Source: Verrucomicrobiia bacterium (GTDB taxonomy: Bacteria; Verrucomicrobiota; Verrucomicrobiia; Palsa-1439). From it: 64,000 nt of DNA. The stretch covers positions 41,420 through 105,419 of the forward strand of contig DATJBF010000005.1 in assembly GCA_035515475.1 (NCBI GenBank), written 5' to 3'. The notes below the pieces were generated by a model, which did no database searches, was not told the DNA's origin, and worked only from the letters and a program-made list of their open reading frames with translations. Shown in pieces: positions 24,469 through 60,258 of the stretch; position 1 is the stretch's first letter, and every line of letters starts with the position of its first letter. The translations under genes and the position numbers were made by a program.

Positions 24469-25833
24469 CTAATAGACGAACGTCTCGAGTTCGTACCGGG
24501 CGACGTAGGGACGTCCCCGTTGCGGGTCGAATCGCAGTGCGGCACGGATCGCCTGCTCCTGCTCGCGCATTTCTTGGGGCGTAAGCGGCTCGACGCCCAA
24601 GGCGCGGGACTCCTCATCGTAACGGCTACCGCAGTAAATCACCAGGGGCGAAAAATAAATGTAATCGCCCGTCGACAACGAAAGCTCGTTCAGTACCTCC
24701 GCGGTTTGCTGCCGGTGCGCCGCATCGAACGCCCGGCCACCCGCGCCCAGAAGCACGATCACGCCGACGGCGATGCGTGCTTCCTTGAGCGCGTGAACGC
24801 AGCGCTGCATCCGCTCGGCAGTCGCCGGTTTGCAGAGCCAGCGGAGCAGATCGTTGCTGCCGGTTTCCAGCCCGATGTACACCCGGCGCAGTCCGTGTTC
24901 GCGCAGCCGGTGGAACTCGGGCGCCGTGTGGGACTTGCCCGTGAACACGTCGAGGAACGAACTCACCCCGTCGAAGCGCGTCTTGCTGCCGTACCACCAG
25001 TGCACGGGAACGGAATTCTGTTCGGCCGGGGGGAACTCAAAGTGTTCGTGCAGCACGCCGAAGAACTCGCGGAGCGTGTCTTCGGGCAGCGCCAGCGCGT
25101 TGGCTTGGCCCAGCAGAATCGAGCGTCGGGCCCGCAATCCCTCGCCGTGGAACGCCACGGCGTCACGCACGTGCTGGCGGAATTGCTCGGTCGTCTTGCA
25201 GTCGTAAAACACACCCCGATACAACTCGCAGAAGAGACAGCCGCCATACGCGCAGCCTTCCGTGGCCTGCAGCACGAGCGCGTTGTATTGGTCGGGGGGC
25301 AGAATGGCGACCCGCCCGTACATTTGATTGAACCGCTGGGCATCGGCCCGGGCCGCTTCGACGCCGAACTTCGTGGCGCGCTCCAAGAGCGGCGTGAGCG
25401 TTTCGACGGCCTGATGAACGGACGGTTTCCCAAACTCAATCGCGAGCGCGCCATCGTTCAGCCGTGCCAGAACCTTCACGGCCTGCGACTGGGCTTGGTC
25501 AACAACCGCGTCGGCGCTATCGGCGAGCAGTCCGCGCTCCACGCCGCCGCCCTCGTCTTTCGGGCGTTTCCGCGTGACGAGCACCCGATGAGACAGGCCG
25601 CGACGGTGATACACGTTCGGCTCGGCGACCTTCAACAGCCGGCCATCGAGGTCATAGTGCAACGCGTGTTCGGGCTGGTCGAAGTACAGCGACAATTCCG
25701 CAGGCGAGAGCGCCACGTAAACATGTCCGCCACCCGACAACCGCACTTGGATTCCCGCCGTCAGTCCGGGCACCTCGCCGAGCGTCCGGTTGCGCTGGTA
25801 GCGCAGAACCGATTGTGCGGCGGTCGCCGTCAC
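24469..25833 (-). CDS. radical-SAM-like protein with non-canonical CX4CX2C motif and about 230-aa N-terminal domain of unknown function
   Basis: CAYGGCLFC cluster motif followed by aromatic residue, then GLETGSNDLL and C-terminal half-barrel resembling Elp3/B12-type radical SAM. Probable GTG start at 25833 overlapping the stop of the upstream AhbD-like gene (GTGA). Confidence 0.5.
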   Translation of the reverse strand: MTATAAQSVLRYQRNRTLGEVPGLTAGIQVRLSGGGHVYVALSPAELSLYFDQPEHALHYDLDGRLLKVAEPNVYHRRGLSHRVLVTRKRPKDEGGGVERGLLADSADAVVDQAQSQAVKVLARLNDGALAIEFGKPSVHQAVETLTPLLERATKFGVEAARADAQRFNQMYGRVAILPPDQYNALVLQATEGCAYGGCLFCELYRGVFYDCKTTEQFRQHVRDAVAFHGEGLRARRSILLGQANALALPEDTLREFFGVLHEHFEFPPAEQNSVPVHWWYGSKTRFDGVSSFLDVFTGKSHTAPEFHRLREHGLRRVYIGLETGSNDLLRWLCKPATAERMQRCVHALKEARIAVGVIVLLGAGGRAFDAAHRQQTAEVLNELSLSTGDYIYFSPLVIYCGSRYDEESRALGVEPLTPQEMREQEQAIRAALRFDPQRGRPYVARYELETFVY

Positions 25834-27035
25834 GTCCGTAAGGCCTCGCTGTAGGCCGGCTCGACCGGGGCCGGGCTGATTTCCTCGTCGGTCAGGTAAC
25901 ACGCAGGATCGGACGCCCACGGGTCGCCGTGCACCTGGAGAGCGCGCACGCGGAAGCTGCCCCCGCAGATGTCCTTGAACCGGCACTCGCGGCAGCGGCC
26001 CTTGAGAAGCGGGAGCCGGTTGCGGAGTTGGGCGAGCAGCGGAATCGAATTATCGCTCCACGTCGCGCTGAACGGGCGTTCCTTCACGTTGCCCAGCGTC
26101 GCGCTTTGCCAGAACTGGTCGGGATGAATGTTGCCCTGGGTGTCGATGTTGGCGATGCCGATGCCCGAGGAGTTGGCGCCCCCCCCGTTCCACTTCATCC
26201 ATTCATGGACCTGCTTCGCGCGGGCCGGGTTGACGGTCTGGAGCTTCAAATAGACGTACGCGTTGTCGGCATGATTGTCGACCGTGAGGATCTCCTTGCG
26301 CATGCCGCGTTCGTGAAACACGCGGGTCCGCGCCAGAATGATCTCCATCGCCCGGCGGATCTCGGTGGGCGTCAGTTCGTCCGCCCGATTTCCGCGGCCC
26401 GTGTACACGAGGTGATAAAAACAGGCGCGCTGGATTCCTTCGGCTTCGATGAAATTGAAAATGTCGTGCAGATCCATGCAGTTGCGGCGGGTGAGCGTGA
26501 GGCGGAGGCCGACTTTCTGTCCGACCAGTTGGCAGGCGCGGATGCCGCGTACCGCGGCGTCGAACGCGCCTTTCTTTCCGCGGAACAGGTCGTTGGTCTC
26601 GCCGATGCCATCGAGGGAGATGCCGACGTAGGCAAGTCGGATCGCTTTGAGCTGCGCTGCGATGGCCTCGTCGATGAGCGTGCCGTTGGTCGACAGTGTG
26701 ACGCGCAGGCCCCTGGCCGCCGCGTAAGCCATCAACTCCATCAGGTCGGGCCGCGTCAGCGGTTCCCCACCCGAGAACAGGACGGCGGGGATGCCGAATC
26801 CGGCCAGATCATCGAGCACGGCTTTGGCGTGGGCGTTGGTCAGTTCGCCGGGATACTTCTGGGCGTAGCTGTCCGAGTAACAGTGCACACACCGGAGGTT
26901 GCAGGTGCGGGTAACGTTCCAGACGACGATGGGTTTACGTTCAGCGGCGGTCTTGGGGGCGTCGGGACCGTGGCCATAACGGAGGTGATCCGCCGGTTGT
27001 TCTGCTCCACAATAGAGCTTGGTGATATTGACCAT
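25830..27035 (-). CDS. radical SAM/SPASM enzyme, AhbD/NirJ-like (putative heme synthase of the siroheme-dependent pathway)
   Basis: KPIVVWNVTRTCNLRCVHCY canonical CX3CX2C, GGEPL, and C-terminal SPASM cysteines (CRECRFKDICGG...DPACY). Fused AhbA/B and hemA are present elsewhere in the window. Confidence 0.75.
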   Translation of the reverse strand: MVNITKLYCGAEQPADHLRYGHGPDAPKTAAERKPIVVWNVTRTCNLRCVHCYSDSYAQKYPGELTNAHAKAVLDDLAGFGIPAVLFSGGEPLTRPDLMELMAYAAARGLRVTLSTNGTLIDEAIAAQLKAIRLAYVGISLDGIGETNDLFRGKKGAFDAAVRGIRACQLVGQKVGLRLTLTRRNCMDLHDIFNFIEAEGIQRACFYHLVYTGRGNRADELTPTEIRRAMEIILARTRVFHERGMRKEILTVDNHADNAYVYLKLQTVNPARAKQVHEWMKWNGGGANSSGIGIANIDTQGNIHPDQFWQSATLGNVKERPFSATWSDNSIPLLAQLRNRLPLLKGRCRECRFKDICGGSFRVRALQVHGDPWASDPACYLTDEEISPAPVEPAYSEALRT

Positions 27036-27556
27036 TGTTCACCTCATTCAGTGCGAACCCGTAAACTGCGGCAACAGCGTTAGCACCGGCTATGCCCCGT
27101 CAAAATCGGACTCGGGGAATACTTGCGCAACTCATTGATTGGAGGAAGGATGAAAAGGGTTTTCTGGTAGGACGCCGTGTAGACTGGCCACTGGCGAGCC
27201 CGCCAAGTTGTCAGTGCCCGGTATGAGCCGGGACAATTTGTCGGTCGGTCCCACGGGGCCCACGGCCCTGTGCAACCGTCCTTGACGGAGCGCGGTTGGA
27301 CCCTCTATACAGGCTTCAGAATCCGATGTCGACAGGAGGCTCCTCCTGATGCGCCGGGCAGGTCTGTTCGGGACGGCGCCGCGTCGATTACGAATGCGGC
27401 GGTGCGTGGCTCATCAACCGGGAGCACAGGCCGAGTTTGGGGGAGATGGTCATCCAGTGAGACAACTATGGTTCAAGAAATTCCGTCCAACAATTAAGCG
27501 GAACACCGGTTGGGCGGCCACTGAGACATGACGTCGATATCCCGCAGGGTGACATT

Positions 27557-28264
27557 ATGCCGAAACTGGACACCGAACTGCATGTGAAGATGTTTCGGGC
27601 CGGGAAACGGCGACGAAGCCTCACTTCACGGATCCGGAAAGCGATCAAGGTGTTACTCGGCAAGGACGACGTGTACGGACTCGAATGGGGTGACCCGGAC
27701 GTGTTCCCTCCCTTGCGGCACGTTCGAGATCATTTCGTCATGCCGTATCTCGCGCCTGACAAAACGGTTGTGGAGATAGGTCCTGGTGGCGGGCGGTGGA
27801 CGCGCTATATGCTCTGCGCCAAACAGATTTATGCGGTTGATTACCATCAAGAAATCCTGAACGAACTCAAATCGAACTTCGACGCTGCGAACATCGCCTG
27901 CGTCAAGAACCACGGGGACGATTTTCCGAACATACCAGATGGGTCGGTTGACTTCTTGTTTTCTTTTGGAACGTTCGTGCACCTCGACGTCGATCTCATT
28001 GATCGCTATCTTCGAAACATGAAACCGTTGCTGAAGCCCGGGAGTCAGGTCGTCATTCAGTATTCGGACAAGACCAAGCCTCGGGGCCGGAGCAACGAAG
28101 GGTTTTCGGAGAATGACCCCGATAACATGCGAAAGCTTGTCCTGTCTCACGGCTATTCGATCCACGAAGAAGATTTGGAAACGCTGGCGCACAGTTCGAT
28201 TGTTCGGTTTGGGCCTCCCAAGGTCGGCACGGGCCCGGAGGCGACGGCGAGAGCCGGTAAGTAA
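27557..28264 (+). CDS. class I SAM-dependent methyltransferase
   Basis: Motif I VVEIGPGGGRWTRYM, motif post-I AVDYH, Rossmann-like pattern; 235 aa. Confidence 0.7.
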   Translation: MPKLDTELHVKMFRAGKRRRSLTSRIRKAIKVLLGKDDVYGLEWGDPDVFPPLRHVRDHFVMPYLAPDKTVVEIGPGGGRWTRYMLCAKQIYAVDYHQEILNELKSNFDAANIACVKNHGDDFPNIPDGSVDFLFSFGTFVHLDVDLIDRYLRNMKPLLKPGSQVVIQYSDKTKPRGRSNEGFSENDPDNMRKLVLSHGYSIHEEDLETLAHSSIVRFGPPKVGTGPEATARAGK

Positions 28265-28692
28265 CCCGCCTCAGTTCTCTTTCGCAGGCTCGCGGCGCTC
28301 ATGCCGCATCGGTTATTCCGGGCTTGGTGGCTGGCTAAGCGTCTGCTCTCCGGTGGGATGCCAACGGCGGTGATTCTGATCGTGATTCTGCGGGAACACC
28401 GGACAAGTTCGGGAGGGGCGCGAATCGGTCGACGCGGGAGGGTGTTGGCTGGGCATTGGTTGCCGGCAGCGCTCCCTAAGCATTCCACTGCGCTGCCGGC
28501 CCCAAGCTTGAGCCCGCCTGACCGTCTATCGCGACCCACGATGCCGGGGAGGGAGACGCCCCGGCGAAATTGCCTGGCCACACCGCAAAAGAACAAACGG
28601 GGTGAAACGTGAAAGCTGACCGGACTCAGCAAAACCGTTTCGCTAGGGTGGAATCTAGCACTTCGACGGGGAAGGAGCTACGCTTGGCTTGT

Positions 28693-29577
28693 CTACTTCT
28701 TAACCCGGATTGACAAGCCCCGACGGGCGCGGAACTCCGATGGCGAGCAGCCAACCTGGCGACGAAAAGCCCGGTTGAAATACGGAATGGAATCGAACCC
28801 GGCCTCGAACGCGACTTCGCTGACCCGCAGATGGCGGTTCAGCAACAGCTTCTTGGCCGCCTCGATGCGCAACTGCGTTCGGTACTCGGTGAAGGTCAAC
28901 CCGGTCTGTCTCTTGAACAGCTTGCAGAAGTGGCAGGGACTGATGTGCAAACGATCGGCCAATTCGCGCACGGTCGTGGCGCGGTCGCCCTGTTCGGCGA
29001 AATAGGCCTCGATCTTCTGCAGCAGCGGCGACCGTTGGCCGGCTTCTTCCAGCAACAGACGCTGGCCGCACTCGGCGAGATACTGCGCGAACATCTCCAA
29101 CAGCGTTTCGACGGCGTGCAATTTCTTGGTGTCCAGCGACGGGCTTGCGTGCCAACTGGCCTGCAGGGCGTTGACCCGAGATTGCAGTCCCCATTTCTTG
29201 AGTTGGCCCGTCAGCCGCCGCAACTGCACGGCGTCCAGCGTCCCGAGGGAGAAAGGCCCGGCCAGCAGATTCCCCACGTGACGGCCCCCGATCACGACCG
29301 GCGTTACCAGCTTGATCAGCCCGGCGGGACATTGGCAATGCGCGGCCCGGCCCGTGCCCGCGGCCTTGCGCTCGGCGGTCAAGAGTCTTTGCTGGCACAA
29401 CTCCCCGCTGCCCGGGCCCATGCAGCCGTCGATACAGAACAGTGACGAGAGCGGCGTGCCGGGTTTTCCGCTGCCGCTGGCCGGCAACAACGTCAACGGC
29501 AGCCCGGTCGCGCAGCTAAACGCGACCTGTTGCCGCCGGACCGCGTCCGACTTCACGAGTTGCTGCCAGATATCCAT
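28693..29577 (-). CDS. AraC-family transcriptional regulator with Cys-rich N-terminal sensor domain
   Basis: C-terminal dual HTH (VRELADRLHISPCHFCKLFKRQTGLTFTEYRTQLRIEAAKKLLLNRHLRVSEVAFEAGFDSIPYFNRAFRRQVGCSPSEFR). N-terminal domain carries C-x3-C and C-x-C pairs (CIDGCMGPGSGELC, HCQCPAGL). Confidence 0.8.
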   Translation of the reverse strand: MDIWQQLVKSDAVRRQQVAFSCATGLPLTLLPASGSGKPGTPLSSLFCIDGCMGPGSGELCQQRLLTAERKAAGTGRAAHCQCPAGLIKLVTPVVIGGRHVGNLLAGPFSLGTLDAVQLRRLTGQLKKWGLQSRVNALQASWHASPSLDTKKLHAVETLLEMFAQYLAECGQRLLLEEAGQRSPLLQKIEAYFAEQGDRATTVRELADRLHISPCHFCKLFKRQTGLTFTEYRTQLRIEAAKKLLLNRHLRVSEVAFEAGFDSIPYFNRAFRRQVGCSPSEFRARRGLSIRVKK

Positions 29578-30813
29578 TCAGATTCCCCCGAACAGATGGG
29601 CCGGTTCGTGCATCCGTTTCGGCTCGTACACGCAAAACGGCTCTTCGGCCATGTAATCGCCTGCGGCGTGAAATGCCCGAGCCCGACAGCCGAGGCAGAT
29701 TCTCTTGAACTCGCACAGACCACACTTGCCTTCGAGTTGGTCGACGTCGCGCAAGCGGGCGAACACTTCCGAATCGTTCCAAATGTCGCGAAGGTTTTTC
29801 CGCTTCACGTTGCCCGCGCTGACCGGCAGATAGCCGCAGGGGAACACCTCGCCGGTATGCGACACGAAACAGACGGCACTGCCCGCCAAACAACCCTTGG
29901 TCATCGCCGCCATGGCCCCGGAAGAAGAGGGAGGATGGGGTATGGTTGATGGTTGATGGTTGCCGGTGGAGGCAGGCGATCGTTCCGCTCGCCTCTGGAA
30001 CGAGGCTCCGGCGCGCCCGTCGGTCTTCGCCCGTTGCCCGTCGTTCCTCTCCCTACGTTCTTCCGCGAGGCGCTGCCGCATCACGCGGAAGTAGTGCGGT
30101 GCGCAGGTGGCCTTGAGATGGACCTCACCCAGTTTGGTCTTGTCGTACATCCAATTCAACACGCGCTCGTATTGCTCGGCGGGAAGCATGTTCGATTGCG
30201 CGATTTGCACGCCACACCCGACCGGCACGAGCATGAACAGGTGCAACGCGTCGGCGCCCAGTTCCAATGCCAGCGAATAGAGTTGCTCGATCTGGTGAAC
30301 GTTGTGGTTGGTAATGGTGCAATTGATCTGCATGCTCATCCCGAGCCGACGCAGGTTGCGGAACCCGCGCAACGCGGCGGCGAGCGAGCCGGATTGACGG
30401 CGGAACTCGTCATGCGTCGTTTCGTCGGCGCCGTCGATGCTGATGGCCACGCGGCGGATACCACAGTCCACAATGGCGTGGGCCAGATGCTCGTCGATGA
30501 GCGTGCCGTTGGTAGCAAGCGCCACAGGCAGGCCGGCGTCACGCGCGCAAGCCGCGATCTGAAAGATGTCGGGTCGGAACAGCGGTTCGCCACCAGAAAG
30601 TACGAGGATCGGCTTGGCGAACTCGGCGAGGTGACGAACGAACTGGAACGCCTCGACCGTCGTCAGATCGTTCTTCATCAGGTCCTTGCTGACGTCGAGG
30701 CGCCGACAGTGAATACATTCGAGGTTGCAGCCAGCGGTGGTCTCCCAGAAGAGGAGCCTCAACTCATGATTGTCCAGTCCCGCGCCCATTGCCGCACAAT
30801 GGGGGTTTAGCAC
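29578..30813 (-). CDS. radical SAM/SPASM enzyme, AhbC-like (putative Fe-coproporphyrin III synthase)
   Basis: LLFWETTAGCNLECIHC CX3CX2C motif, GGEPL, and C-terminal SPASM cysteines (CFVSHTGEVFPCGY...CGLCEFKRICLGCRARAF). Low-complexity linker before the SPASM domain. Confidence 0.7.
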   Translation of the reverse strand: MLNPHCAAMGAGLDNHELRLLFWETTAGCNLECIHCRRLDVSKDLMKNDLTTVEAFQFVRHLAEFAKPILVLSGGEPLFRPDIFQIAACARDAGLPVALATNGTLIDEHLAHAIVDCGIRRVAISIDGADETTHDEFRRQSGSLAAALRGFRNLRRLGMSMQINCTITNHNVHQIEQLYSLALELGADALHLFMLVPVGCGVQIAQSNMLPAEQYERVLNWMYDKTKLGEVHLKATCAPHYFRVMRQRLAEERRERNDGQRAKTDGRAGASFQRRAERSPASTGNHQPSTIPHPPSSSGAMAAMTKGCLAGSAVCFVSHTGEVFPCGYLPVSAGNVKRKNLRDIWNDSEVFARLRDVDQLEGKCGLCEFKRICLGCRARAFHAAGDYMAEEPFCVYEPKRMHEPAHLFGGI

Positions 30814-31303
30814 TGTCGATGCCAGAGAGGGTGCCAGTTTGACAATAACTTGTCGTACAACGGCTTTCGAGGGCTGGTTCGTGGTCGCTAGAACGCCACA
30901 AAGCTGACAATTTGGCGGCGTGTGGGGGACGCCTCGACAACTTGTCTCGGTCGTCGATGGTGGGTATACGATGCTGGATGCTGGACGGTGGTGACAGGGT
31001 CTGCGACCGATGACGCTGGAACTTCAATCAGGTTTCGGTCGTCTCCCGTCGCCGATCCTCTCATCGCCGATTTCTTATCTTCTCCCCTTGCGCTTGCGAG
31101 GTTCGGGCGTAAGTTCTAGCGAGAGAGCCGAGCGGACACCTCTCAGCACTCAATGGGAAAGGCCTTCGGGCTTACCTCGACAAAGATCGGGGATTTAGGA
31201 ATCGGGGAGTGCGACACTCGGCTCTCTTTTTTTGTGAGTTTCGGACATTGCTCGAGCCGGTGCCGTGAGCGACCGGGACTCGATCATCTTGGAGGCCGAC
31301 CGC

Positions 31304-33322
31304 CTAGAACCGCACGGTGCAGCTGGCGCTGGCGAGGTGGGCGATGTAGTTGTCGACGCCGCCGCTACTGCGGTCGTCGTAGGCATAGTATCCGTAGCGG
31401 AGGCGGGCGATGATATGATTGGAAATCCGGTGGGTGAGACCGACGAGCAGCCCGTGGCGTTGGTAGTCCAATCCCAACGGGAGACCGGCGGCTGAGTTGT
31501 CGGTGAAATTGTCCGAGCGGGAGTAGGTGTACTCGACGTTCACGTCGGTCTTCTTGTCGAGCGCGTAGCCGGCGGTGCCCATGATGGTGTACACGTTGCC
31601 GACGTAATCAACCACGGCCGGGTTTCCATTGGCGAACGACGAGGTGCGCGTGTCGTCAAGCGAGAAGAGGCCGGTCACGTACAGGCGCGCGATCGGCGTG
31701 ACCGTGGCGCTGACGCTGTAGATATTGGCGTCGAAATTGCCCGAGGTCAGTTCGCCACCCGGCGCCAGCATGGGAACGGAGTCGGTGGTGGTCTTGATGT
31801 CGGTGGCCAGCTTCTGGTAGCGGAACGCCACGTTGAAGTAGCGGCAAGGGCGCAGCGTCAACTTGGCGGTTACCTCGTCCTCGATAAAGTTCTGTCCCGT
31901 AATGAACGCGGGATAGCCCGCGATCGTGTCGAGAGTGTGGTCGTAGTCGTTGTCGTAGATGCTGTGGCGGTACCGGCCGGCGAGGGTGACCCGGGGAAGC
32001 GGCGCGGTGTTGAAGCCGACGGTGTAATCCTGGCGCCAGATGTCGGTATCGGTCTTGCGGGCGAAATCCAGCGCGGCGTCTTGGGTCTCGCGTTCTTCGA
32101 GGTCGATCGACTGTTCGTTCCACCGTCCTTCGGCGTAGAGCGTGGTGAACGGAATCTTGGTGTAGCGCAGCCCGACGGTCTCTTCGAGGCTGCGCTTGTT
32201 GTTGCTGCTATGAATGAGCGCTTCGGGGCTGTTGGTCGCGCCGCCGCCCGCGAGCTGGGTCAGGAACGCGTCGGTGAATCCATGGGTGTCCGTCTTCTCG
32301 GCCTCGGCTCCGGCGGCGATGGTCAAGCCGGCGAACGGGCCGAACATGGTGTTGAAGTTGACGACGTGGGAGTCCACATCGACGGCAATCACACTCGTGA
32401 CCCAATCCCGGTCAAACGGAGCACTGAACGGCTCGGTGTTGATGGACAGGCCGCCGCCACCGTTGAGGCTGGTGAACAAATACCCGAGCGACCAATACAC
32501 CTTGTCGTTTACATGCTGGTCCATGCGGAACGCATTGGAGAACTCGTCGTGATGGTAGTGCTCGGTGACGGTGACGGTCTGGCCGGCGGCGGAGACCAGG
32601 TTGGTGGAGGCATCGTGCCGTTGGTCGACGTTGCGAGGATGTTCGTAACGGAATTGATCGGCCAGATGCAGGCTGTTGATGTCGTGTTCCACGTCGGCCT
32701 TGATGATGTCGACCGTCTCATTGACGTGCTCGTAGGACGGGAAGATGTTACGGGTGGTGATGCCCTGGGTGGTGGCGCCCCATTCCAACAACGATTCTTG
32801 GCCCTGGCGGATCTGTCGCTCCACACCCAAGGTAAGCTTCGGCAGGTTCGGCAGCGTCAGCCCCACCTCGGCGAAGGCGTCGCCGTGGCGGACAAACAGA
32901 TCCTGCGCGGTCCCGAACGCAGGTGGAACCAGACCCCGGAAAAACCCACCGGCGCTGTCGTAATACGACTGGAATTCGGTGAAACCTCCGCGGACGAAAC
33001 CCACGTCGGGGTTCACGATTTCCAGCCGCAACTTGTAGTCTTCGTCGTCGAAGAGTGCCCGGCCTTGGACATTCAACTGCCAATTCTTGTTGAGCTTCTG
33101 ACTATAGGTCGCGTCTTCGATCCCGCCCGACCAGCCGTTCTTGATCCACCAGTCCTGACGGAACTTGTTCGCGTCGCCCTTCACGGTAACGTACTGGCCC
33201 CCGGATGTGACGCTCACTTCGGGAGGCGACGTCGAGTTGGTTTCCGCCGTCGTGGCCGGGGGAGACACGAGCGCGAGCGCGGGAAGGCCGATCATGAACA
33301 TTATCAGGATCGATCGTTTCAT
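31304..33322 (-). CDS. large outer-membrane beta-barrel protein (MtrB/PioB-like porin of a porin-cytochrome conduit)
   Basis: Signal peptide (MKRSILIMFMIGLPALALVS), about 670 aa of alternating amphipathic beta-strand pattern rich in Y/G/T/N, and terminal residue Phe (…CTVRF). Immediately downstream of two multiheme cytochrome genes in the same orientation. Confidence 0.6.
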   Translation of the reverse strand: MKRSILIMFMIGLPALALVSPPATTAETNSTSPPEVSVTSGGQYVTVKGDANKFRQDWWIKNGWSGGIEDATYSQKLNKNWQLNVQGRALFDDEDYKLRLEIVNPDVGFVRGGFTEFQSYYDSAGGFFRGLVPPAFGTAQDLFVRHGDAFAEVGLTLPNLPKLTLGVERQIRQGQESLLEWGATTQGITTRNIFPSYEHVNETVDIIKADVEHDINSLHLADQFRYEHPRNVDQRHDASTNLVSAAGQTVTVTEHYHHDEFSNAFRMDQHVNDKVYWSLGYLFTSLNGGGGLSINTEPFSAPFDRDWVTSVIAVDVDSHVVNFNTMFGPFAGLTIAAGAEAEKTDTHGFTDAFLTQLAGGGATNSPEALIHSSNNKRSLEETVGLRYTKIPFTTLYAEGRWNEQSIDLEERETQDAALDFARKTDTDIWRQDYTVGFNTAPLPRVTLAGRYRHSIYDNDYDHTLDTIAGYPAFITGQNFIEDEVTAKLTLRPCRYFNVAFRYQKLATDIKTTTDSVPMLAPGGELTSGNFDANIYSVSATVTPIARLYVTGLFSLDDTRTSSFANGNPAVVDYVGNVYTIMGTAGYALDKKTDVNVEYTYSRSDNFTDNSAAGLPLGLDYQRHGLLVGLTHRISNHIIARLRYGYYAYDDRSSGGVDNYIAHLASASCTVRF

Positions 33323-33332
33323 GAGCGCATCC

Positions 33333-34199
33333 CTAGTACCGCAAGTGGGAGTTGACATCCGAACCATGCACCGCGGTGTGACAGCCGGCGCTGAAACAGG
33401 TGCCGCGGCTCAGGAACGGCGTGTGATCGAACTGGCCGATGATGGTCATGCCCCCCGAGCCGGGCAGCGCGACCTGGGCGTGGCATTTCAGGCACAGATT
33501 ATTGTCCTGCTCGGTAAGCAATTTGTCGTTGATGGAGCCGTGCACGTTGTGGCAGGTGGTGCAGCCCTCGCGCAGTGCTTCGTGTTCGAACACGTGCGGC
33601 CGGGCCTGCTCGCGGTGGCATCGGGCGCAGGTCTCATTGGCGCGGGTGAGAAACGTGCCTTTGGCCTGCATGATGTTTTCGCCGTGCGGATCGTGGCAAT
33701 CGGTGCAACTCATTCGGCCTTCTTTGACCGGATGATGGTGGGGAAGGCTGAACTCCGCGTTCTTGTCGAGATGGCATTGAAAACACATGTCGGGGCCCTT
33801 GCCGGAGATGATAAATCGATCCTTGGGCGTGCCGCCGCCGGCATCAACGTGCAGGCTGCCCGGCCCGTGGCAGGATTCGCAGCCCTGGCCCTCGACCCGC
33901 TCCCCCTCGCCGGGAATCTGGATGCGGGCATGCGCGGTGAGTTTGAAGTTCTGGACTTCCTTCTCGTGGCAGAGCGCGCATTGGTCCATGCCGACGTACT
34001 TCGCCCCGGGAATCATCGGCGGCGCCACGACAACCCGGTCCACCGTCGCACAAGAGATCAAGAGTCCGACGATGGCGATGCCGCCGATGATGCTTCCCAG
34101 GTACAGCTTCCTGGAAGTAGCCGTGCTCAAGGCCTGTCCTCGTTCAGCGGAGGTCCGCGCTCGGGAAATCGCCGGTAACACCGCCGTAGGGATTGCCAA
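33333..34199 (-). CDS. periplasmic octaheme c-type cytochrome (MtrA/OmaB-like)
   Basis: 7 CxxCH plus one CX4CH (CALCH, CESCH, CFQCH, CTDCH, CARCH, CTTCH, CLKCH, CFSAGCH) in about 260 aa; N-terminal signal/anchor. True start probably slightly downstream of 34199 (the ORF overlaps the upstream stop). Confidence 0.85.
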   Translation of the reverse strand: MAIPTAVLPAISRARTSAERGQALSTATSRKLYLGSIIGGIAIVGLLISCATVDRVVVAPPMIPGAKYVGMDQCALCHEKEVQNFKLTAHARIQIPGEGERVEGQGCESCHGPGSLHVDAGGGTPKDRFIISGKGPDMCFQCHLDKNAEFSLPHHHPVKEGRMSCTDCHDPHGENIMQAKGTFLTRANETCARCHREQARPHVFEHEALREGCTTCHNVHGSINDKLLTEQDNNLCLKCHAQVALPGSGGMTIIGQFDHTPFLSRGTCFSAGCHTAVHGSDVNSHLRY

Positions 34200-36732
34200 C
34201 GGTGGTCGTCCGCCTGTCGAACGTGTTCGTACTGAGCATCGTGTAGGTCCACTGCAGGAGGCGGACAGTGTAAGCGGTATTATGCACGCCGTGGCTCAAC
34301 TCGCGGGCGATCATCTGGTAGTTCCAGACGGCGGCATGCTGAGCGGTCGCCACAACCGTGTTGGTGGAGTACCCACTCCAGAACGGGTAACCGGCGCTAT
34401 GCTTGAGGGAGTTTGTCGCCGTCGAGCTGTCCACGCAATTCGTCATCTTGTCTTCCAGATTGGCCAGCAGGCCATCGACTTCCGTCTGCACGCCGCTGAC
34501 CGTGCCGTCACCGTTGTAGTCGGCCGCGCCGGGGAACCCGCTTCGGACAATCGAGACGTGATCGAAACCTTCGGCTTCCGTAACCGGATCCACGCCGGCG
34601 TGGCACTGGTTGCACGCGGCAATGTCATCTTCCCCCGTCAATCGGTCGCTCATGCTGAACGTGTGATCGCCGACCGTGTTCACGCCGGCGTTATACATGT
34701 GGCAATCGATGCACTTGGCCACACCGGAGTGCGCCGAGTTTTCGAGGGTGACGCTAGCCACCGGCACGAGATTGGTCACTCCGCCGGTGACCACCGTCGC
34801 CACCACATTGGTGACGGTGTCGAACCCGAGGAGGATGTCGGTTGCCGTGCTTTCGTGGGGTAAGCTACTCATGTAATACGGCTTGCCGCTGCTGACTTGG
34901 TACGGATTCGCGCGGGCGTTGTGGCATTGCATGCACAACGCGGAAGCGCCCTGACCAGTCAGGACGGCATTGGTGCCGGTCGAAGTATCAATGCTGTCGA
35001 GCGTGACCGTGTCATACACCCGGACCTGATGAGCATCCGCCGGGAACATCGCGACGTTGTGTGGATCGTGGCAGGCCTGGCAGGTGAGCCGGCCGGCTTC
35101 CAAGCGCGTGAGCGCCTTGCCCTTCAGGTAATCGACGAAGCTCGTCGGCGAATGGCACTTGGCGCACGAAGGGTTGGGGGCTTCGCCGATCGACACGGAA
35201 AGATATTCATCATCGGCGCCGTGCGGTCCCAATCTCCATTGCTTGGGCCGGTTATGGAAATGGCCATCCTGATGGCAAGTGGCGCACACGGCGACGTCCA
35301 GGTTGGCCGACTCGGCACCGGGGTGCTGGCTACCAGGGCCGTGGCAGCTTTCGCACTGGATGTTGGCCTTGTTCTGCAACGCCGCCGGCATCGCCGCATA
35401 GTTGCCGTACTGCAGCACGGTGGGGAACGTCCAGCCGACTTCCTGCTGGACCGCGTAAAAGTTTCCATTAGTTGCCGAAGGTGACTGGTTGTAGCCCACG
35501 GTATGGCAGGCCAGACAGCTGGCATTGTACGAGGAGCCCAGCAGCCCGTCGATGCCCCGCTGGGCCATCGTGGCGTGCAGCGTCTGGCTCCACGGCGTGT
35601 AGTAATCTTCCAATCCGACCAGCGGGCTGGTTCCGTGACACGACGCGCAGGTGGCGACCCCGACATACGTGGCTCCCCGCACGGTCACGAACGAAGAGTT
35701 TGTCTTCCCGCCGCCGCTCACTGTCAGTTGCAGGACATAATCACCTTCCGCGTCCGGTTCCAGGGACGGCGTGCGTGTCTTGGAGCCCACCAACACCGCG
35801 GTCGAACCGGTCGGCTTGGCCGTGATACTCCAACTGTAGGTCGAGGCGTTTGTTCCGTTGGGTGCCCCGGTCAAGTACTGTCGCTCGCCGAGCGGGATGG
35901 ACGGCTGTCCCGGTGAAACACTGGTCGAAATCACCGTGACGGTACCCGTCGCGGCATGCGCCGCATCCGAAACGATGACTTGAAGATGGTAGGTGGTCGC
36001 CGTTACCTGCTCTGAGGTGAAGTGGACGAGGTTCGAGTTCGTCGCCAGATCGTACGAGTTCTCCAGATCGACGGGATCCAGGACGTTGGTGACGCCGCCG
36101 CTCGTGACGTCCAGCAAATTAGTGAAGCTGGTGAGCGGCAGTGTGTTAAATGTCGGCGCATTTGTGGTCGTGGAACTGAACGTCGCGTTTGTCCGCACGT
36201 CGGTGTCGGTCAGGCTCCAGGCGTACGTGAGGGGCGGAGTGAATCCGTTGGTCGAGACCGCGTCCGCGTTGACGGCGACGTTCGTGTTAAATCCGACATC
36301 GTAAAGAGTCGTTTGCGGCGTGGTGGGCGCGGCGGCTGCGCTGATCGTAATCAGAACCGACTTCTGGCCGATGTTCCGGCGACCGAGCTTCGCTTTCACG
36401 CGCAGCACGGCTGTGCCCAGGAAATTGGTCGGGATCGCCACCGAGTCGCTCGTTACCGACATGACACCGGCGACGACTGAGTTTGTGAGGGCGGGGAAGA
36501 GCACCCGTAATTTCTTACCCGTGAGCCGGCCTTTGGTAACGAGAACACCCGGGCTCGTCACGGTCAGATTGAGTTGATACGTGAGCGTGCCGCCGGATGT
36601 CGGGCTCCCGCCGATCTGGAGCGTTCCCAGTTGGGCTGGTGGAGGTTTGGCCGCGCAAACGGGCTGCAAAACCGAAGTCACCAGCGCGCCGACCAACAAG
36701 CTGGTGCCAACAAACAAGGCGTGTCGAGACAT
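34144..36732 (-). CDS. large secreted/cell-surface 9-heme c-type cytochrome with N-terminal beta-rich (Ig-like) repeats
   Basis: Start MSRHALFVGTSLLVGALVTSVLQPVCA (signal) with GGAGGA RBS. About 380 aa of Thr/Ser/Val-rich strand-like repeats, then 9 CxxCH (CASCH, CLACH, CESCH, CATCH, CAKCH, CQACH, CMQCH, CIDCH, CNQCH). Confidence 0.85.
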   Translation of the reverse strand: MSRHALFVGTSLLVGALVTSVLQPVCAAKPPPAQLGTLQIGGSPTSGGTLTYQLNLTVTSPGVLVTKGRLTGKKLRVLFPALTNSVVAGVMSVTSDSVAIPTNFLGTAVLRVKAKLGRRNIGQKSVLITISAAAAPTTPQTTLYDVGFNTNVAVNADAVSTNGFTPPLTYAWSLTDTDVRTNATFSSTTTNAPTFNTLPLTSFTNLLDVTSGGVTNVLDPVDLENSYDLATNSNLVHFTSEQVTATTYHLQVIVSDAAHAATGTVTVISTSVSPGQPSIPLGERQYLTGAPNGTNASTYSWSITAKPTGSTAVLVGSKTRTPSLEPDAEGDYVLQLTVSGGGKTNSSFVTVRGATYVGVATCASCHGTSPLVGLEDYYTPWSQTLHATMAQRGIDGLLGSSYNASCLACHTVGYNQSPSATNGNFYAVQQEVGWTFPTVLQYGNYAAMPAALQNKANIQCESCHGPGSQHPGAESANLDVAVCATCHQDGHFHNRPKQWRLGPHGADDEYLSVSIGEAPNPSCAKCHSPTSFVDYLKGKALTRLEAGRLTCQACHDPHNVAMFPADAHQVRVYDTVTLDSIDTSTGTNAVLTGQGASALCMQCHNARANPYQVSSGKPYYMSSLPHESTATDILLGFDTVTNVVATVVTGGVTNLVPVASVTLENSAHSGVAKCIDCHMYNAGVNTVGDHTFSMSDRLTGEDDIAACNQCHAGVDPVTEAEGFDHVSIVRSGFPGAADYNGDGTVSGVQTEVDGLLANLEDKMTNCVDSSTATNSLKHSAGYPFWSGYSTNTVVATAQHAAVWNYQMIARELSHGVHNTAYTVRLLQWTYTMLSTNTFDRRTTTVGNPYGGVTGDFPSADLR

Positions 36733-36757
36733 GTCTTTTGTCCTCCAGCCAACCATC

Positions 36758-36777
36758 TTGGCAGGGCACGTGCCAGC
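36758..36777 (-). promoter_or_regulatory. candidate sigma-54 (-24/-12) promoter upstream of the 9-heme cytochrome gene
   Basis: Minus-strand sequence CTGGCAC-GTGCC-CTGCC matches TGGCAC-N5-TTGCW except for one position, about 25-45 nt upstream of ATG 36732. The adjacent gene encodes an NtrC-type sigma-54 activator. Confidence 0.35.
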
Positions 36778-37078
36778 CCGCCTCTCGGGCTCCACAAGGA
36801 CCTAGCCATCAAACGCTTAATAAGCCTTTAGCTCTTTCGTCGGTCGAGGTAAAGCTAATTCTAGCGCGACTTCGCTCGGTCGATTGCGTGATTCCGCGCG
36901 GACTCCGCGATGGGTGTCGTCGCGCCGGCGCCATTTCATGCGGGTTTCAGGGAAGGCGAGCGCCCGTGGCACAACCACTGCTGGGCCGAGACGCGCATGT
37001 TATCGGCCAAAGTACTCTGGTCTGTCGTCGCCTTGATTGGGCTCGCGGTTCTGGCTCTTTCGGCCATCGTGATTGTCA

Positions 37079-38476
37079 TCAGCACGTCGCCGCGCTAGGC
37101 TCGCCCGCCGCGTCCAGCAAACCGTACTTCACCAGCCGCCGTCGCAACGCGTCGCGTTCGATGCCCAACAATTCCGCCGCGCGGGTTTGGTTGCCGCCGG
37201 CGCGCTCCATCGCCTGCAGGACGAGTTCGCGTTCGACTTCGGCCAGCGCCACGCCCCGGCCGGGCAGTTCGACCACCCATTTCCCGTTCTTCTTCACGCC
37301 GGCCCGGATTTCAGGAGGGAGATGCTTGGGCTGAATGACGTCGTCGGATTCCAGGATGACCAACCGTTCGACGGCGTTGCGCAACTCGCGGACGTTCCCC
37401 GGCCAATCGTAACACCGCAGCGCGTCCCCGGCCTCGGGGGACAATTGTTTCGGCGACTTCTTGAATTCTTCGGCAAAGTGCTTGAGAAAATGTTCGGCCA
37501 ATTGGGGAATGTCCTCGCGTCGTTCTCGCAACGGCGGGATGTCGACCGAGATCACCTTCAGTCGATAGAGCAAGTCTTGGCGGAACTCACCACGCGCCAC
37601 GGTTTCGGTGAGGTTCTTGTTGGTGCAGGCGATGACGCGGACATCCACCGCGATGTCCTGCGTACCGCCGACCCGGCGAAATTGCCGGGTCTCGAGTACG
37701 CGCAGCAACTTGGCCTGCATCGCCGGTTTGAGGTCGCCGATTTCATCGAGCAGCAACGTGCCGCCGTCGGCCAACTCGAATAACCCTTTCCGGGACGTCT
37801 TCGCGTCGGTGAACGCGCCGCGCTCGTGGCCGAACAATTCGCTTTCGAACAGGTTTTCCGGCACGGCCGAGCAATTGATGTCGAGGAACGGATGTTCGGC
37901 GCGTCGGCCGCCGAAATGGATCGCCCGCGCGGCCAGTTCCTTGCCCGTCCCGTTCTCGCCTTCGATCAGCACCGTGGTCGCGTCGCTTTCGGCAATCTTG
38001 GCGAGCAACTCGCGCGCAGCACGCATCGGGGGGCTTTGGCCGACGAGATTCTCCAGACCAAACTTCCGCGCCTGTTGGCGTTGCAGGCGGGCGACTTCAC
38101 GGCGCAGCTTTAATTCCCCGCGCGCCTTGTCCAGCGCCACGCGGACCTCATCGAAGTCGAACGGCTTGCACAGATAATTGTGGGCGCCGAGCCGGACGCA
38201 TTCCACCGCGCGGGCGATGCCCGTATCGGCGGTCAACATGATGACGGCGATTTCCTTTCCGAGATTCTTGATTTCCTGCAGCACCTGGACGCCGTCCATG
38301 CCGGGCAGGCGCAGATCGAGCAGCACCAGATCGTACCCATCGTTGCGGATCAGGTTGAGTCCTTCCTCGCCGCTGGGGGAGGTCTCCACCTCGTAGCCTT
38401 CGCGCATCAGCTTTTGCTGAAGCGACCAGCGCACCAGCTTCTCATCGTCAATGACCAATACTTTGGCTCTAGCCAT
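37079..38476 (-). CDS. sigma-54-dependent response regulator (NtrC family)
   Basis: Receiver (KVLVIDDEKLVRWSL...LVLLDLRLPGMDG), AAA+ sigma-54 interaction domain (GENGTGKELAARAIH, ESELFGHERGAFT GAFTGA motif) and C-terminal Fis-type HTH. Confidence 0.9.
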   Translation of the reverse strand: MARAKVLVIDDEKLVRWSLQQKLMREGYEVETSPSGEEGLNLIRNDGYDLVLLDLRLPGMDGVQVLQEIKNLGKEIAVIMLTADTGIARAVECVRLGAHNYLCKPFDFDEVRVALDKARGELKLRREVARLQRQQARKFGLENLVGQSPPMRAARELLAKIAESDATTVLIEGENGTGKELAARAIHFGGRRAEHPFLDINCSAVPENLFESELFGHERGAFTDAKTSRKGLFELADGGTLLLDEIGDLKPAMQAKLLRVLETRQFRRVGGTQDIAVDVRVIACTNKNLTETVARGEFRQDLLYRLKVISVDIPPLRERREDIPQLAEHFLKHFAEEFKKSPKQLSPEAGDALRCYDWPGNVRELRNAVERLVILESDDVIQPKHLPPEIRAGVKKNGKWVVELPGRGVALAEVERELVLQAMERAGGNQTRAAELLGIERDALRRRLVKYGLLDAAGEPSAATC

Positions 38477-39983
38477 GGCTGAATACCTCCTCCCGTACGT
38501 CCGCTTCGGACGGAGCCCAGGCGGCAAATTCCAGGGTGAACGTGCTTCCCCGGCCGACGTCGCTGGTCACTTCAATCACGCCCCGGTGTTTTTCCACGAT
38601 GGTCCGGGTAATGGCCAATCCCAGTCCTGTGCCGCGGTGTTTCGTCGTGAAGAACGGCGAGAAAATCTTCCGCAGGTTCTCCGGCGCGATGCCGTTGCCC
38701 GTGTCGCAGATGCTGACGCGGACGGACCGATCGTGACCGGGCCGCAACACTTTGTTCAACGTTTCCGCGCGCACCGTCAACGTACCGCCGTCGGGCATCG
38801 CTTGAACGGCGTTCAGGAGGACGTTCAGGACCGCCTGTTGAACTTGGGAACTATCGGCGCAGATCGGTGGCAGGTCGGCCGGACACTGCTCGACAATTCG
38901 CACGTGCTGCTTCTGAGCGTCGGGCCGAATCAGCCCGAGCATGGGCTTGATGATATCGCTCACGGCGCAGGCCGCGATCTCCGGGTCGCGCTGGCGCGAG
39001 AAATCCAGCAACTCCCGCAAGGTGGCGTTCAAGCGCGCGATCTGCCGCCGGATTTCGGCGACAATCTCGCCCTGCTGTCCGTTGCCGCCGTTTTCCGACA
39101 GCACTTCCACTGCCGCGCCGATGCCGGCCAACGGATTGCGGATCTCGTGGGCGATGCCCGCGGCCAGTTCGCCAATCGAGGCGAGCTTGCCCGCTTGTTG
39201 GATCTGCTTCTCGTGCGACTCGTGCAATTCGCGTTTGGCGGCATCGAGGCTCTGCAGCATCCGGTTGAAACCGGTGGCGAGCTCGCCGATTTCATCTTTG
39301 GTCTGCGCGGCGACCCGAACGTTGAGGTCGCCGGCCTGGACCTTGCGCATTTGTTCCAAGACCTGACTGACGGGTTGAGTGACCAGCCGGACGATGAGCA
39401 GCCACAACACAACGCCGACCAGCACGAAGATCACCACGCCGTAGGCGATGAGCAGATTGCGGTTGCTGGCCACGCTGGCTTCGGCGGGCGCGAGGGACCG
39501 TTCCAGGACAATCGCGCCGTTGTATCGCTGCCGGGGATCGTGACATTTCTGGCAGCTGTCGACGTTGGTGACCGGGCGCATGGCGACGGCGAGACGTTCG
39601 CCGTTTTCGGTCCGCTCCCCCTGCAGCACACGGCCTTCGCCGAACAATTCCGGCGGCACGGTCATTACGGCGTGCTCGATCTCCTGGGTTTCGGTCGAGA
39701 ACGCCACCGTGCCGTCGACGCGGATCACGCGGCCCCGGCGGATTTCGTCGCTGGCCTGCATCCGCATGAGGAATCCCTGCAACTCCAGATGGCGATCGCT
39801 GAGCATCACGCCGTTGAGGTACTCGTGCACCATCGAGGCCGCGATGAGATTCTGCGCCTGGGTGCGCTCGTGCCACCATTCGCTTTGGACGCGAATCACG
39901 AAATACGTGTAGATCCCGATTACCATGGCAACCGTTACGCCGACGGCCACGAGAACTTTCGCCGTGAGATTACGTCGCAGCAT
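38469..39983 (-). CDS. sensor histidine kinase with periplasmic heme-c-binding (CxxCH) sensor domain
   Basis: Two TM segments flank a periplasmic domain of about 150 aa containing CQKCH. HAMP, HisKA (IAHEIRNPLAGI) and HATPase_c (DTGNGI, GTGLGL) follow. Overlaps the downstream regulator start by 8 nt. Confidence 0.85.
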   Translation of the reverse strand: MLRRNLTAKVLVAVGVTVAMVIGIYTYFVIRVQSEWWHERTQAQNLIAASMVHEYLNGVMLSDRHLELQGFLMRMQASDEIRRGRVIRVDGTVAFSTETQEIEHAVMTVPPELFGEGRVLQGERTENGERLAVAMRPVTNVDSCQKCHDPRQRYNGAIVLERSLAPAEASVASNRNLLIAYGVVIFVLVGVVLWLLIVRLVTQPVSQVLEQMRKVQAGDLNVRVAAQTKDEIGELATGFNRMLQSLDAAKRELHESHEKQIQQAGKLASIGELAAGIAHEIRNPLAGIGAAVEVLSENGGNGQQGEIVAEIRRQIARLNATLRELLDFSRQRDPEIAACAVSDIIKPMLGLIRPDAQKQHVRIVEQCPADLPPICADSSQVQQAVLNVLLNAVQAMPDGGTLTVRAETLNKVLRPGHDRSVRVSICDTGNGIAPENLRKIFSPFFTTKHRGTGLGLAITRTIVEKHRGVIEVTSDVGRGSTFTLEFAAWAPSEADVREEVFSHG

Positions 39984-48446: not shown

Positions 48447-48727
48447 GGCCACCTTTCGTGTGACGGGCGGTGGCTTAGCAGTGGCCTTGCCAGTGGATGC
48501 CGCAGGTTGGGGCGACGGTCTGTAAGCGCTTGGCCTACAGTCGATTGCCGTGCGCGAAATCGCGCAGGCGACGAATCGGCTGCGCCGATCGTCGACCGAC
48601 AGATTGGCGGCGGGCTCCCGTTTCATGACAGCTTGTCATCAGTCGCCAAGCCAAGAGGCGATAGGGGGACGCGCTGCGTTGCAACCGAATCTTTGACTCG
48701 GCTCCGCTATTCGTCGCGGTGTCAACC

Positions 48728-49381: not shown

Positions 49382-49582
49382 CGCCGGGTAGTATGCCAAT
49401 GCGAGTCAGTGGCGGCAAGTCTCTCGTGACAGGTGTCAGCAACCGGACGAGGAACGCTCACGGCGCGCTCAGCGAGCACGCCCTACCAACGACCGTCAGG
49501 CGGAAACACTCGCGCCACTGCAAAAAAACGCCGGCCCGGTTGGTGACCGCGCCCGGCGTCGGCAGACAGGTCTCGGGAAAAC

Positions 49583-54689: not shown

Positions 54690-54901
54690 GTTGCGCCGGC
54701 GATTATTAGCGTTGTCGCGCGGGTTGCGTCAAGCGTTCCATCGACTGATGAAGGTAGGGACGCGCTCCGGCGCGTCCACGGGTCATTGGGACGCGGTGCC
54801 CCGCGTCCGTGGCCGCGCCGCAGCGCAGCCCTACCAAGGCTGTTCCTTGATGCCTCCCCAATCTCGACTCGACAAACTGTCCGTGATAAAAGGCGCCCAA
54901 G

Positions 54902-58011: not shown

Positions 58012-58171
58012 CACCAAATCGTCTTGTCCCATCGCGCCCATTGCAGCATAAAGACGAACCAGCGGCTGGAACGGATACTGGCAAAGTGCGCGGACATGGG
58101 CAAGGGAATTGGAGTTGTCAGCGGTCAGCTATCAGCTTTCGGCGGTCAGCCACCAACGATCGAGTCCGGCC

Positions 58172-60200: not shown

Positions 60201-60258
60201 ACCGCATATATACCGGACTAAGGCACACTCCAGTAAATCGCACGGGCTATCTTCCACC

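Follow-up and report, generated by a model that had tools for sequence, protein, structure and literature searches.

Probable sirohaem-dependent haem b synthesis genes in a Verrucomicrobiia bacterium: a split ahbD-ahbC operon with sigma-54 type promoter elements and a Cys-rich PocR/AraC regulator

We analysed a 64,000-nt stretch of DNA from a Verrucomicrobiia bacterium (the window, with a GC content of about 61%), in which two radical S-adenosylmethionine (SAM) enzymes are predicted to catalyze the last steps of haem b synthesis from sirohaem. The region between 24.4 and 30.8 kb holds five genes, namely a third radical SAM gene (rSAM3), an ahbC-type gene, a methyltransferase gene, a gene for a regulator with a PocR domain and an AraC-type helix-turn-helix (HTH), and an ahbD-type gene (Table 1). 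An earlier interpretation made from the letters alone (the sequence-only reading) had described two radical SAM genes with CNLxCxHC motifs flanking a divergently transcribed methyltransferase and an AraC-family regulator. Gene calls and motifs agree with the two radical SAM genes at their positions, and the methyltransferase does lie on the opposite strand; the regulator, however, is co-directional with ahbD, and its ATG (29577) abuts the ahbD stop codon (29578) with no spacer. Likewise, the rSAM3 ATG and the ahbC stop codon share four nucleotides (ATGA). Neither rSAM3 nor the sigma-54 type promoter elements figured in the sequence-only reading. The longest open reading frame (ORF) of the ahbD-type gene extends to 30813, and public gene calls begin at the ATG at 30789, which gives 403 aa. 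Proteins identical or 77-89% identical to those of the region were found only on metagenome contigs and metagenome-assembled genomes (MAGs) labelled Verrucomicrobiia or Verrucomicrobiae, from peat, palsa, bog and groundwater samples.

Identity of the radical SAM genes and the predicted pathway

Against NCBIfam models, the product of the gene at 25830 scores 526.8 bits with NirJ1, 494.3 with AhbC, 405.3 with NirJ and 210.8 with AhbD, and the product of the gene at 29578 scores 437.1 bits with AhbD, its top family by more than 110 bits, followed by NirJ2 (308.4), AhbC (166.4) and the mycofactocin maturase (157.6). For the two proteins in the same order, PqqE gives 93 and 131 bits and mycofactocin 138 and 158 bits. 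This ranking and the Cys motifs described below identify the gene at 25830 as AhbC-type and that at 29578 as AhbD-type, with the corresponding enzyme activities predicted; the sequence-only reading had named them in the opposite order in its title, while leaving the choice open in its text.

The AhbD-type protein carries the radical SAM motif CX3CX2C (C21-X3-C25-X2-C28 in the 403-aa form) and a SPASM region of eight Cys from C229 to C386, in which C300-X17-C318-X37-C356-X2-C359-X5-C365-X2-C368-X17-C386 has the published spacing. The AhbD proteins of methanogens and sulfate reducers share the SPASM motif CX20-33CX17CX36-37CX2CX5CX2CX17-35C (PMC10452713). The C229-C300 spacer, at 70 residues compared with the published 20-33, is wider because the linker is long and hypervariable. 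An apparent insertion of about 45 residues (residues ~255-300) was considered as a special feature and rejected, the linker being hypervariable across all relatives, and its removal lifts the AhbD score merely from 437 to 449 bits. In the AhbC-type protein, C45-X3-C49-X2-C52 and C348-X2-C351-X5-C357-X21-C379 are kept in nine relatives, including those from Dehalococcoidia; the latter corresponds to the C-terminal auxiliary-cluster motif CX2CX5CX20-21C that AhbC and NirJ have in common (PMC10114771). Both genes had been taken for radical SAM/SPASM enzymes from sequence alone, and this stands for the gene at 29578, in which Pfam detects a SPASM domain; none is detected in the product of the gene at 25830, which has the shorter CX2CX5CX21C motif.

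Compared with AhbC and AhbD of Desulfovibrio vulgaris and Methanosarcina barkeri, both window proteins have the same CX3CX2C motif and find these families as best profile matches, the AhbD-type protein has all eight SPASM Cys, spaced as published from the second onward, and the AhbC-type protein has the C-terminal motif of AhbC and NirJ; AhbA/B, hemA and cytochrome c biogenesis genes are likewise present in the window. They differ in scores below the equivalog cut-offs, in the AhbD spacer between the first and second SPASM Cys, in a split operon with sigma-54 type promoters and in a third conserved radical SAM gene after ahbC. The host also differs, being a member of the Verrucomicrobiota, whereas the published work consulted here assigns the pathway to archaea and sulfate-reducing bacteria; no report of Ahb genes in Verrucomicrobia was found in the literature. 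The enzymes are ordinary, somewhat divergent members of the well-characterised Ahb system and are new at the phylum level, and the known chemistry of the pathway is unchanged by them.

The remainder of the predicted pathway is also represented. As the sequence-only reading had stated, Pfam and NCBIfam place a fused AhbA/AhbB and hemA in the window. The fused protein passes both NCBIfam cut-offs (AhbA, 244.2 bits against 140, residues 11-154; AhbB, 241 against 125, residues 188-333), and hemA has a gene of system II cytochrome c biogenesis on either side (resB and ccsA). The window also contains the genes of a cytochrome bc complex and seven or more genes for multihaem cytochromes, with a decahaem-porin module directly upstream of ahbD, and annotation of its genes revealed no other classical haem gene, no nir gene and no terminal oxidase; these statements on the classical pathway and nir genes apply to the 64-kb window. 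In Dehalococcoidia MAGs, orthologues of AhbC (48-50% identical) and AhbD (54-56%) belong to a cluster in the order sirC, hemA, hemC, cobA/hemD, hemB, ahbD, ahbC, ahbAB, which ties the two genes firmly to haem b synthesis and speaks against a role in making haem d1 or in maturing peptides. With AhbA/B above its cut-offs and hemA in the window, the earlier proposal that this bacterium makes haem via sirohaem is well supported. AhbA/B would decarboxylate sirohaem, AhbC would remove the two acetate side chains of 12,18-didecarboxysirohaem to give Fe-coproporphyrin III, and AhbD would decarboxylate two propionates to yield haem b.

It is very improbable, in our estimate, that the radical SAM pair instead helps to make haem d1 for a cd1 nitrite reductase, with the protein at 25830 acting as a NirJ. 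AhbC and NirJ are close homologues that share didecarboxysirohaem as substrate and have a C-terminal cluster motif in common, AhbA/B and NirDLGH perform the identical sirohaem decarboxylation, and NirJ1 is the top match of this protein. However, NirJ1 and NirJ2 are older names of the AhbC/AhbD-like pair in organisms without a cd1 reductase, and the true NirJ model (TIGR04051) falls about 90-120 bits below the AhbC and NirJ1 models (405 vs 494-527 bits). Both profile and neighbourhood set the gene apart from NirJ. The partner gene is of the AhbD type and thus of a kind that plays no part in making d1, the decarboxylase lies above both equivalog cut-offs, nirS, nirF, nirN and nirE are absent from the window and from 33 related 20-kb loci, the Dehalococcoidia orthologues sit inside a haem b cluster, and the many c-type and b-type cytochromes of the window require haem b. 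A function as peptide or cofactor maturases (for pyrroloquinoline quinone (PQQ), mycofactocin or ribosomally synthesized and post-translationally modified peptides (RiPPs)), which the sequence-only reading had named as the contrary case, is scarcely credible, since the common SPASM/Twitch architecture and the nearest solved structures by sequence (PqqE, SkfB, BlsE and MoaA, which merely reflect the absence of any AhbC or AhbD structure) are set against PqqE, mycofactocin and RiPP maturase scores of 90-160 bits vs 437-527 bits for the Ahb models, the lack of precursor peptide and pqq or mft genes nearby, and a synteny with ahbAB and hem genes that is kept in another phylum.

Table 1. Positions of the genes and control elements discussed (coordinates of the window; a point marks features given without strand)
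Feature	Position	Strand	Description
rSAM3	24469..25833	-	454-aa radical SAM protein, CX4CX2C (C194/C199/C202)
ahbC-type radical SAM gene	25830..27035	-	401 aa, CNLRCVHC (C45/C49/C52)
Sigma-54 type -24/-12 element GGCATAGCCGGTGCT	27082..27096	-	46 nt upstream of ahbC ATG
Pair of GACAAnTTGTC palindromes, 30 bp apart	27202..27242	.	Putative upstream activator sites of the ahbC promoter
Insertion of ~1.2 kb with methyltransferase gene	27246..28448	.	Break points from blastn with L049 and L003
Class I SAM methyltransferase	27557..28264	+	235 aa; Pfam Methyltransf_25/11/23
Conserved non-coding spacer 3' of regulator gene	28449..28692	-	Alignment of 7 related spacers
PocR-domain/AraC-HTH regulator	28693..29577	-	294 aa; Pfam
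ahbD-type haem b synthase gene	29578..30789	-	403 aa, CNLECIHC; predicted by profile and motif
Sigma-54 type -24/-12 element GGCATCGACAGTGCT	30809..30823	-	Upstream of ahbD
Pair of GACAAnTTGTC palindromes, 30 bp apart	30906..30946	.	~95-125 nt before the -24/-12 element of ahbD
NtrC-type response regulator / sigma-54 activator	37079..38527	-	Pfam Sigma54_activat, Response_reg, HTH_8
HAMP histidine kinase	38469..40094	-	Pfam HisKA/HATPase/HAMP
hemA (glutamyl-tRNA reductase)	45938..47101	-	Pfam GlutR_N, Shikimate_DH; between resB and ccsA
Fused AhbA/AhbB sirohaem decarboxylase	54902..55939	+	NCBIfam AhbA and AhbB

The split operon and its control regions

The AhbC-type protein was used to retrieve 33 Verrucomicrobiia loci, and gene order was compared among these. 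The ahbD and ahbC genes are contiguous in 22 of them, rSAM3 lies directly 3' of ahbC in 26, and cytochrome, decahaem and porin genes are found upstream in most. The regulator gene stands between ahbD and ahbC only in a small clade made up of the window and the loci L003, L049 and L055-L058, these six loci all having the order ahbD-pocR-spacer-ahbC without a methyltransferase gene. In L049, whose proteins are 84-88% identical to those of the window, a 44-bp part of the spacer stands where the window has 1,203 bp, with break points given by blastn to L049 and L003. The methyltransferase gene in this segment differs in composition from its neighbours (54.7% vs 61.5-64.7% GC; GC at third codon positions (GC3) 0.66 vs 0.76-0.82), and a repeat scan found no terminal direct or inverted repeats at the ends of the cassette. 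The protein occurs only on contigs of the same population, where it is identical, and in none of the relatives compared; restricted in this way to one population, it is a recent passenger and not a component of the pathway.

The split of the gene set remarked on in the sequence-only reading is real, and gene-order comparison shows that it arose late and is specific to this lineage, two nested insertions having rearranged an ancestral ahbD-ahbC-rSAM3 operon; the order of the insertions follows from the same comparison. The methyltransferase, which that reading had placed between the two genes, does not belong to the system and lies in an insertion that the closest relatives lack. In the first step the PocR/AraC gene would have entered directly behind ahbD, with ahbC-rSAM3 gaining a palindrome and sigma-54 type control region of its own, and in the second, seen in this species only, a foreign 1.2-kb cassette would have entered the spacer and left the promoter intact.

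In the conserved spacer 3' of the regulator gene (28449..28692) there are a hairpin that resembles a terminator and has a T-run, the invariant block CACGTTTCACCCCGTTT and a perfect inverted repeat of 11 bp (GCCGGCAGCGC / GCGCTGCCGGC; 28462-28472 and 28490-28500) with a variable loop, and across seven such spacers invariant blocks surround variable loops. The RNA fold z-score is only -2.0, and no Rfam family was matched in the spacer, a tRNA being the sole Rfam match of the window.

Alignment of the regulator-to-ahbC spacers of the seven genomes also reveals an invariant block GGGCATAGCCGGTGCT with the GG-N10-GC spacing of sigma-54 -24/-12 elements. The strict pattern GGCAY-N5-KTGCW matches the 64-kb window only twice, before ahbC (GGCATAGCCGGTGCT) and before ahbD (GGCATCGACAGTGCT), and both matches fit a -24 GG and a -12 GC with 10 nt between them, in a TGGCAC-N5-TTGCW-like form. 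The element before ahbC is kept in all split-operon relatives and is absent where ahbD and ahbC are contiguous, and of 26 related Verrucomicrobiia loci, 23 have a strict or one-position-relaxed element before ahbD (24 of 27 when the source contig, L001, is included). About 95-145 nt upstream of each element there are two copies of GACAAnTTGTC, 30 bp apart; the palindrome has six matches in the window against 1.97 expected, four of them at the two ahb promoters. A search of 1.2 Mb of related loci (33 relatives, both strands) for palindrome and -24/-12 element combined returned 28 composites, with 22 directly before ahbD, three before ahbC (in split operons only) and one before a lone ahbC. A scan of 26900-31400 for sigma-70 promoters and terminators gave no more hits than shuffled sequence. 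Single palindromes with one mismatch were also observed at 48627..48637, at the start of resB in the cytochrome c biogenesis/hemA operon, and at 54871..54881, 21 nt upstream of the ahbA/B ATG; about two such matches would be expected by chance in the window.

These features, the GG-N10-GC spacing, the paired upstream palindromes and a nearby response regulator/AAA+ activator with its kinase, resemble those of NtrC-type sigma-54 promoters, and sigma-54 dependence of the ahb promoters is inferred from them. The NtrC-type two-component system at 37079..40094 is the candidate activator. In 16 relatives an orthologue of the activator gene (71-79% identity) precedes the cytochrome-porin-ahbDC cluster, and nine of these have the kinase in the flank as well. 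The ancestral ahbD-ahbC-rSAM3 unit would then have been enhancer-dependent, with a sigma-54 promoter and two upstream GACAAnTTGTC sites probably bound by this neighbouring activator, and its distal half would have received a copy of the control region after the split. Sigma-54 promoters require AAA+ activators, so an AraC protein is unlikely to drive ahbC. GACAAnTTGTC is not known as a motif of any characterised activator, and to our knowledge sigma-54 control of haem synthesis genes has not been described.

The PocR/AraC regulator and rSAM3

The regulator scores above the gathering thresholds (in parentheses) of PocR PF10114 (65.5 bits; 23.9), HTH_18 PF12833 (94.8; 33.6) and HTH_AraC PF00165 (73.9; 26.6). 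Its N-terminal domain does contain the six Cys in CX3C/CXC pairs that the sequence-only reading had noted (C22, C48, C52, C61, C81 and C83, with C48-X3-C52 and C81-X-C83), and an alignment of 85 family members identifies C48 (84 members), C52 (83), C61 (85) and C83 (84) as near-invariant, in the arrangement CX3CX8CX21C; C22 is found in 71 and C81 in seven. An AlphaFold2 model with a predicted local distance difference test (pLDDT) value of 82 suggests a GAF/IclR-effector-like N-domain, and no structure of a PocR domain was found to exist.

The order of PocR domain and AraC HTH is the same as in Salmonella PocR and Eubacterium limosum MtaR, and the NCBIfam PocR model aligns with residues 8-285. 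The score with this model (NF047788) is 80.1 bits against a cut-off of 500, which means that the regulator is not a PocR orthologue. PocR and MtaR have 1,2-propanediol or methanol as their signal and cob/pdu or mta operons as their targets, whereas the family of the window regulator, with its four near-invariant Cys, is found in oxidase or ahb operons and never beside pdu or cob genes. Among 80 metagenome loci, the regulator gene lies between ccoI and ccoS-ccoNO-ccoP-ccoG-ccoH, encoding a cbb3 oxidase, in 43, and directly upstream of (ctaB-)coxB-coxA-coxC-coxD, encoding an aa3 oxidase, in nine; 17 are free-standing copies in Verrucomicrobiia, one of which adjoins a cytochrome bd-like gene (L045), and four have the arrangement ahbD-regulator-ahbC. 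In two more distant Verrucomicrobiota MAGs (L015, 2407..12564, and L025, 1072..12628), a regulator of the same family and a complete haem-copper oxidase operon of the ctaB/coxBAC type lie between ahbD and ahbC, with the haem o synthase gene ctaB in L015. In both of these, genes of O2-dependent respiration are nested within an operon for O2-sensitive haem synthesis.

Palindrome and -24/-12 element occur together upstream of 16 of the 17 free-standing Verrucomicrobiia copies, so that the regulator and the ahb genes of this class appear to form one regulon even when they are not adjacent. The palindrome was also considered as a general operator of the PocR/AraC family, and this was rejected, as the cbb3- and aa3-linked loci of other phyla lack it.

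Haem and oxygen are the features common to all contexts of the regulator, and its most likely role is that of a sensor of O2, redox state or haem, with a cofactor that would be held by C48, C52, C61 and C83. The Fe-S or haem sensor suggested in the sequence-only reading is therefore plausible. FNR, the PAS domain of NreB and the sigma-54 activator OrpR of Desulfovibrio offer a functional analogy only, having no sequence relationship to it and other Cys spacings. These three proteins control respiratory genes through sensory domains with Cys-ligated Fe-S clusters, and in NreB and OrpR the fold is of the PAS type (PMC13478379, PMC8359166). A different role, in which the four Cys are ligands of Cu(I) or Zn or pair as regulatory disulfides and the protein senses copper or thiol stress for oxidase assembly, seems to us improbable, although it has the most to be said for it among the alternatives. 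Cys-rich sites often bind Cu(I) or Zn, and at 43 loci the gene stands between ccoI, encoding a Cu-exporting P1B ATPase, and ccoS, both of them copper/cofactor assembly factors of the cbb3 oxidase. However, the systems to which the family is linked in Verrucomicrobiia contain no copper (ahbDC, and the cytochrome bd-like gene of L045), and it is haem and O2 that recur in every context.

In the third radical SAM protein, rSAM3, the Cys of the CX4CX2C motif are the only ones that are invariant in an alignment of 20 sequences, and its AlphaFold2 model (pLDDT 86) predicts an all-beta N-terminal domain followed by the radical SAM core. Neither rSAM3 nor five distant homologues matched an NCBIfam family, no PDB sequence match was obtained, and Foldseek against the PDB returned generic radical SAM cores only (MgmA, Elp3, HemN and RimO, with TM-scores of about 0.4). 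A profile search found a wider family of 518 representative clusters at E < 1e-30, unnamed and without genomic context. Matches to rSAM3 by tblastn near the Dehalococcoidia haem cluster were rejected, as they belong to a shorter 308-aa radical SAM protein with similarity in the core only. The translational coupling to ahbC and the conservation of this arrangement in 26 of 33 loci suggest a role for rSAM3 in haem metabolism. An AhbD-like paralogue (33% identity) was also seen after ahbC in a Fimbriimonadaceae MAG (L033, 11220..12353); it keeps CX3CX2C, lacks most of the auxiliary-cluster Cys of the SPASM region and looks like a degenerate SPASM protein.

No report of a PocR/AraC regulator of oxidases was found in the literature, and the regulator family, rSAM3 and the promoters are undescribed. 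It can be speculated, and we put it forward as a tentative proposal only, that the four-Cys PocR/AraC proteins are Fe-S or haem O2/redox regulators that replace FNR-type regulators in Verrucomicrobiota and several other phyla and control cbb3, aa3 and bd-like oxidases, that in Verrucomicrobiia they form one sigma-54 regulon with anaerobic haem synthesis, and that rSAM3 is a third radical SAM enzyme of haem metabolism.

Overall explanation and neighbouring features

We consider it likely that the region encodes the terminal part of the sirohaem-dependent, O2-independent pathway to haem b, with an ancestral sigma-54 controlled ahbD-ahbC-rSAM3 operon split by two insertions and with a regulator that is most likely an O2, redox or haem sensor. 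Several observations detract from this explanation. The AhbC-type protein stays below the NCBIfam equivalog cut-offs of AhbC (TIGR04546) and NirJ1 (TIGR04054), with 494.3 and 526.8 bits against 650 for each, and the AhbD-type protein stays below that of AhbD (TIGR04545), with 437.1 bits, or 449.3 without the linker, against 500; both are divergent members by these scores. The model matched best by the AhbC-type protein is named NirJ1, "putative heme d1 biosynthesis radical SAM protein", and the assignment of both proteins draws on profiles, Cys motifs and synteny. The analysis covers the 64-kb window, and the classical pathway or a cd1 nitrite reductase could lie elsewhere in the genome. With regard to the promoters, the ahbD element ends 19 nt before the annotated ATG, so that either the mRNA has almost no leader or the start codon is wrongly called, and rpoN was not found in the window. 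As for the regulator, its model is least confident in the Cys loop of residues 33-56, which includes C48 and C52, its metal or haem cofactor is a prediction only, general annotation found no oxidase genes in the window, and richness in Cys may be common to PocR domains in general.

The methyltransferase and the regulator could also both be working parts of the haem pathway, the one modifying a tetrapyrrole and the other sensing haem and activating ahbC directly, and to this we attach a low probability. Both genes are placed between ahbD and ahbC, the methyltransferase has a weak NCBIfam match to a corrinoid-protein-associated methyltransferase (29 bits, cut-off 180), the regulator is probably co-transcribed with ahbD, and its predicted GAF-like N-domain has a fold that binds tetrapyrroles in other proteins. 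However, the methyltransferase lies in a low-GC insertion missing from every relative compared, even from one with 86-88% protein identity, the ahbC promoter is of the sigma-54 type and would need an AAA+ activator rather than an AraC protein, an identical promoter type precedes ahbD where the regulator gene sits elsewhere, and most members of the regulator family are located in oxidase operons rather than haem-synthesis operons. Haem sensing by the regulator alone may be the case and is among the alternatives within the explanation that we prefer, that of a split ahb operon with a passenger methyltransferase.

A complete set of late-pathway genes is now recognized in a widespread peat and groundwater clade of Verrucomicrobiia that also carries porin-cytochrome conduits, and the anaerobic supply of haem for extracellular electron transfer in these uncultured organisms becomes assignable. 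The third radical SAM gene coupled to ahbC and the sigma-54/palindrome region, which defines a small regulon, are leads for further work, and the four-Cys PocR/AraC family found in oxidase operons of several phyla could be a new sensor of O2, redox state or haem.

Upstream of ahbD, a module of the porin-cytochrome type (31304..36795, minus strand) encodes an 883-aa multihaem cytochrome, a decahaem cytochrome resembling DmsE and GSU2203 and a 687-aa beta-barrel protein, and it is preceded by the NtrC-type two-component system on the same strand. In the relatives, the decahaem gene of this module is found upstream of ahbD in 19 and the porin gene in 21, with the activator gene further upstream in 16. 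Two further respiratory stretches on the minus strand (40.0..45.2 kb and 50.3..54.7 kb) contain NrfD-like, 4Fe-4S and multihaem cytochrome genes, a 699-aa cytochrome b561/multihaem fusion and a Rieske/cytochrome b complex with NapC/NirT-type and multihaem cytochromes. Between resB-hemA-ccsA and the bc complex, a gene with an ORF6N domain (KilA-N-like; 48728..49399, minus strand) has a low GC3 and may be the remnant of a mobile element. From 58000 to 64000 the GC content falls to 52-57%, and two long ORFs on the minus strand (58440..60497 and 60259..62907) are without annotation; this part of the window is possibly of foreign origin.

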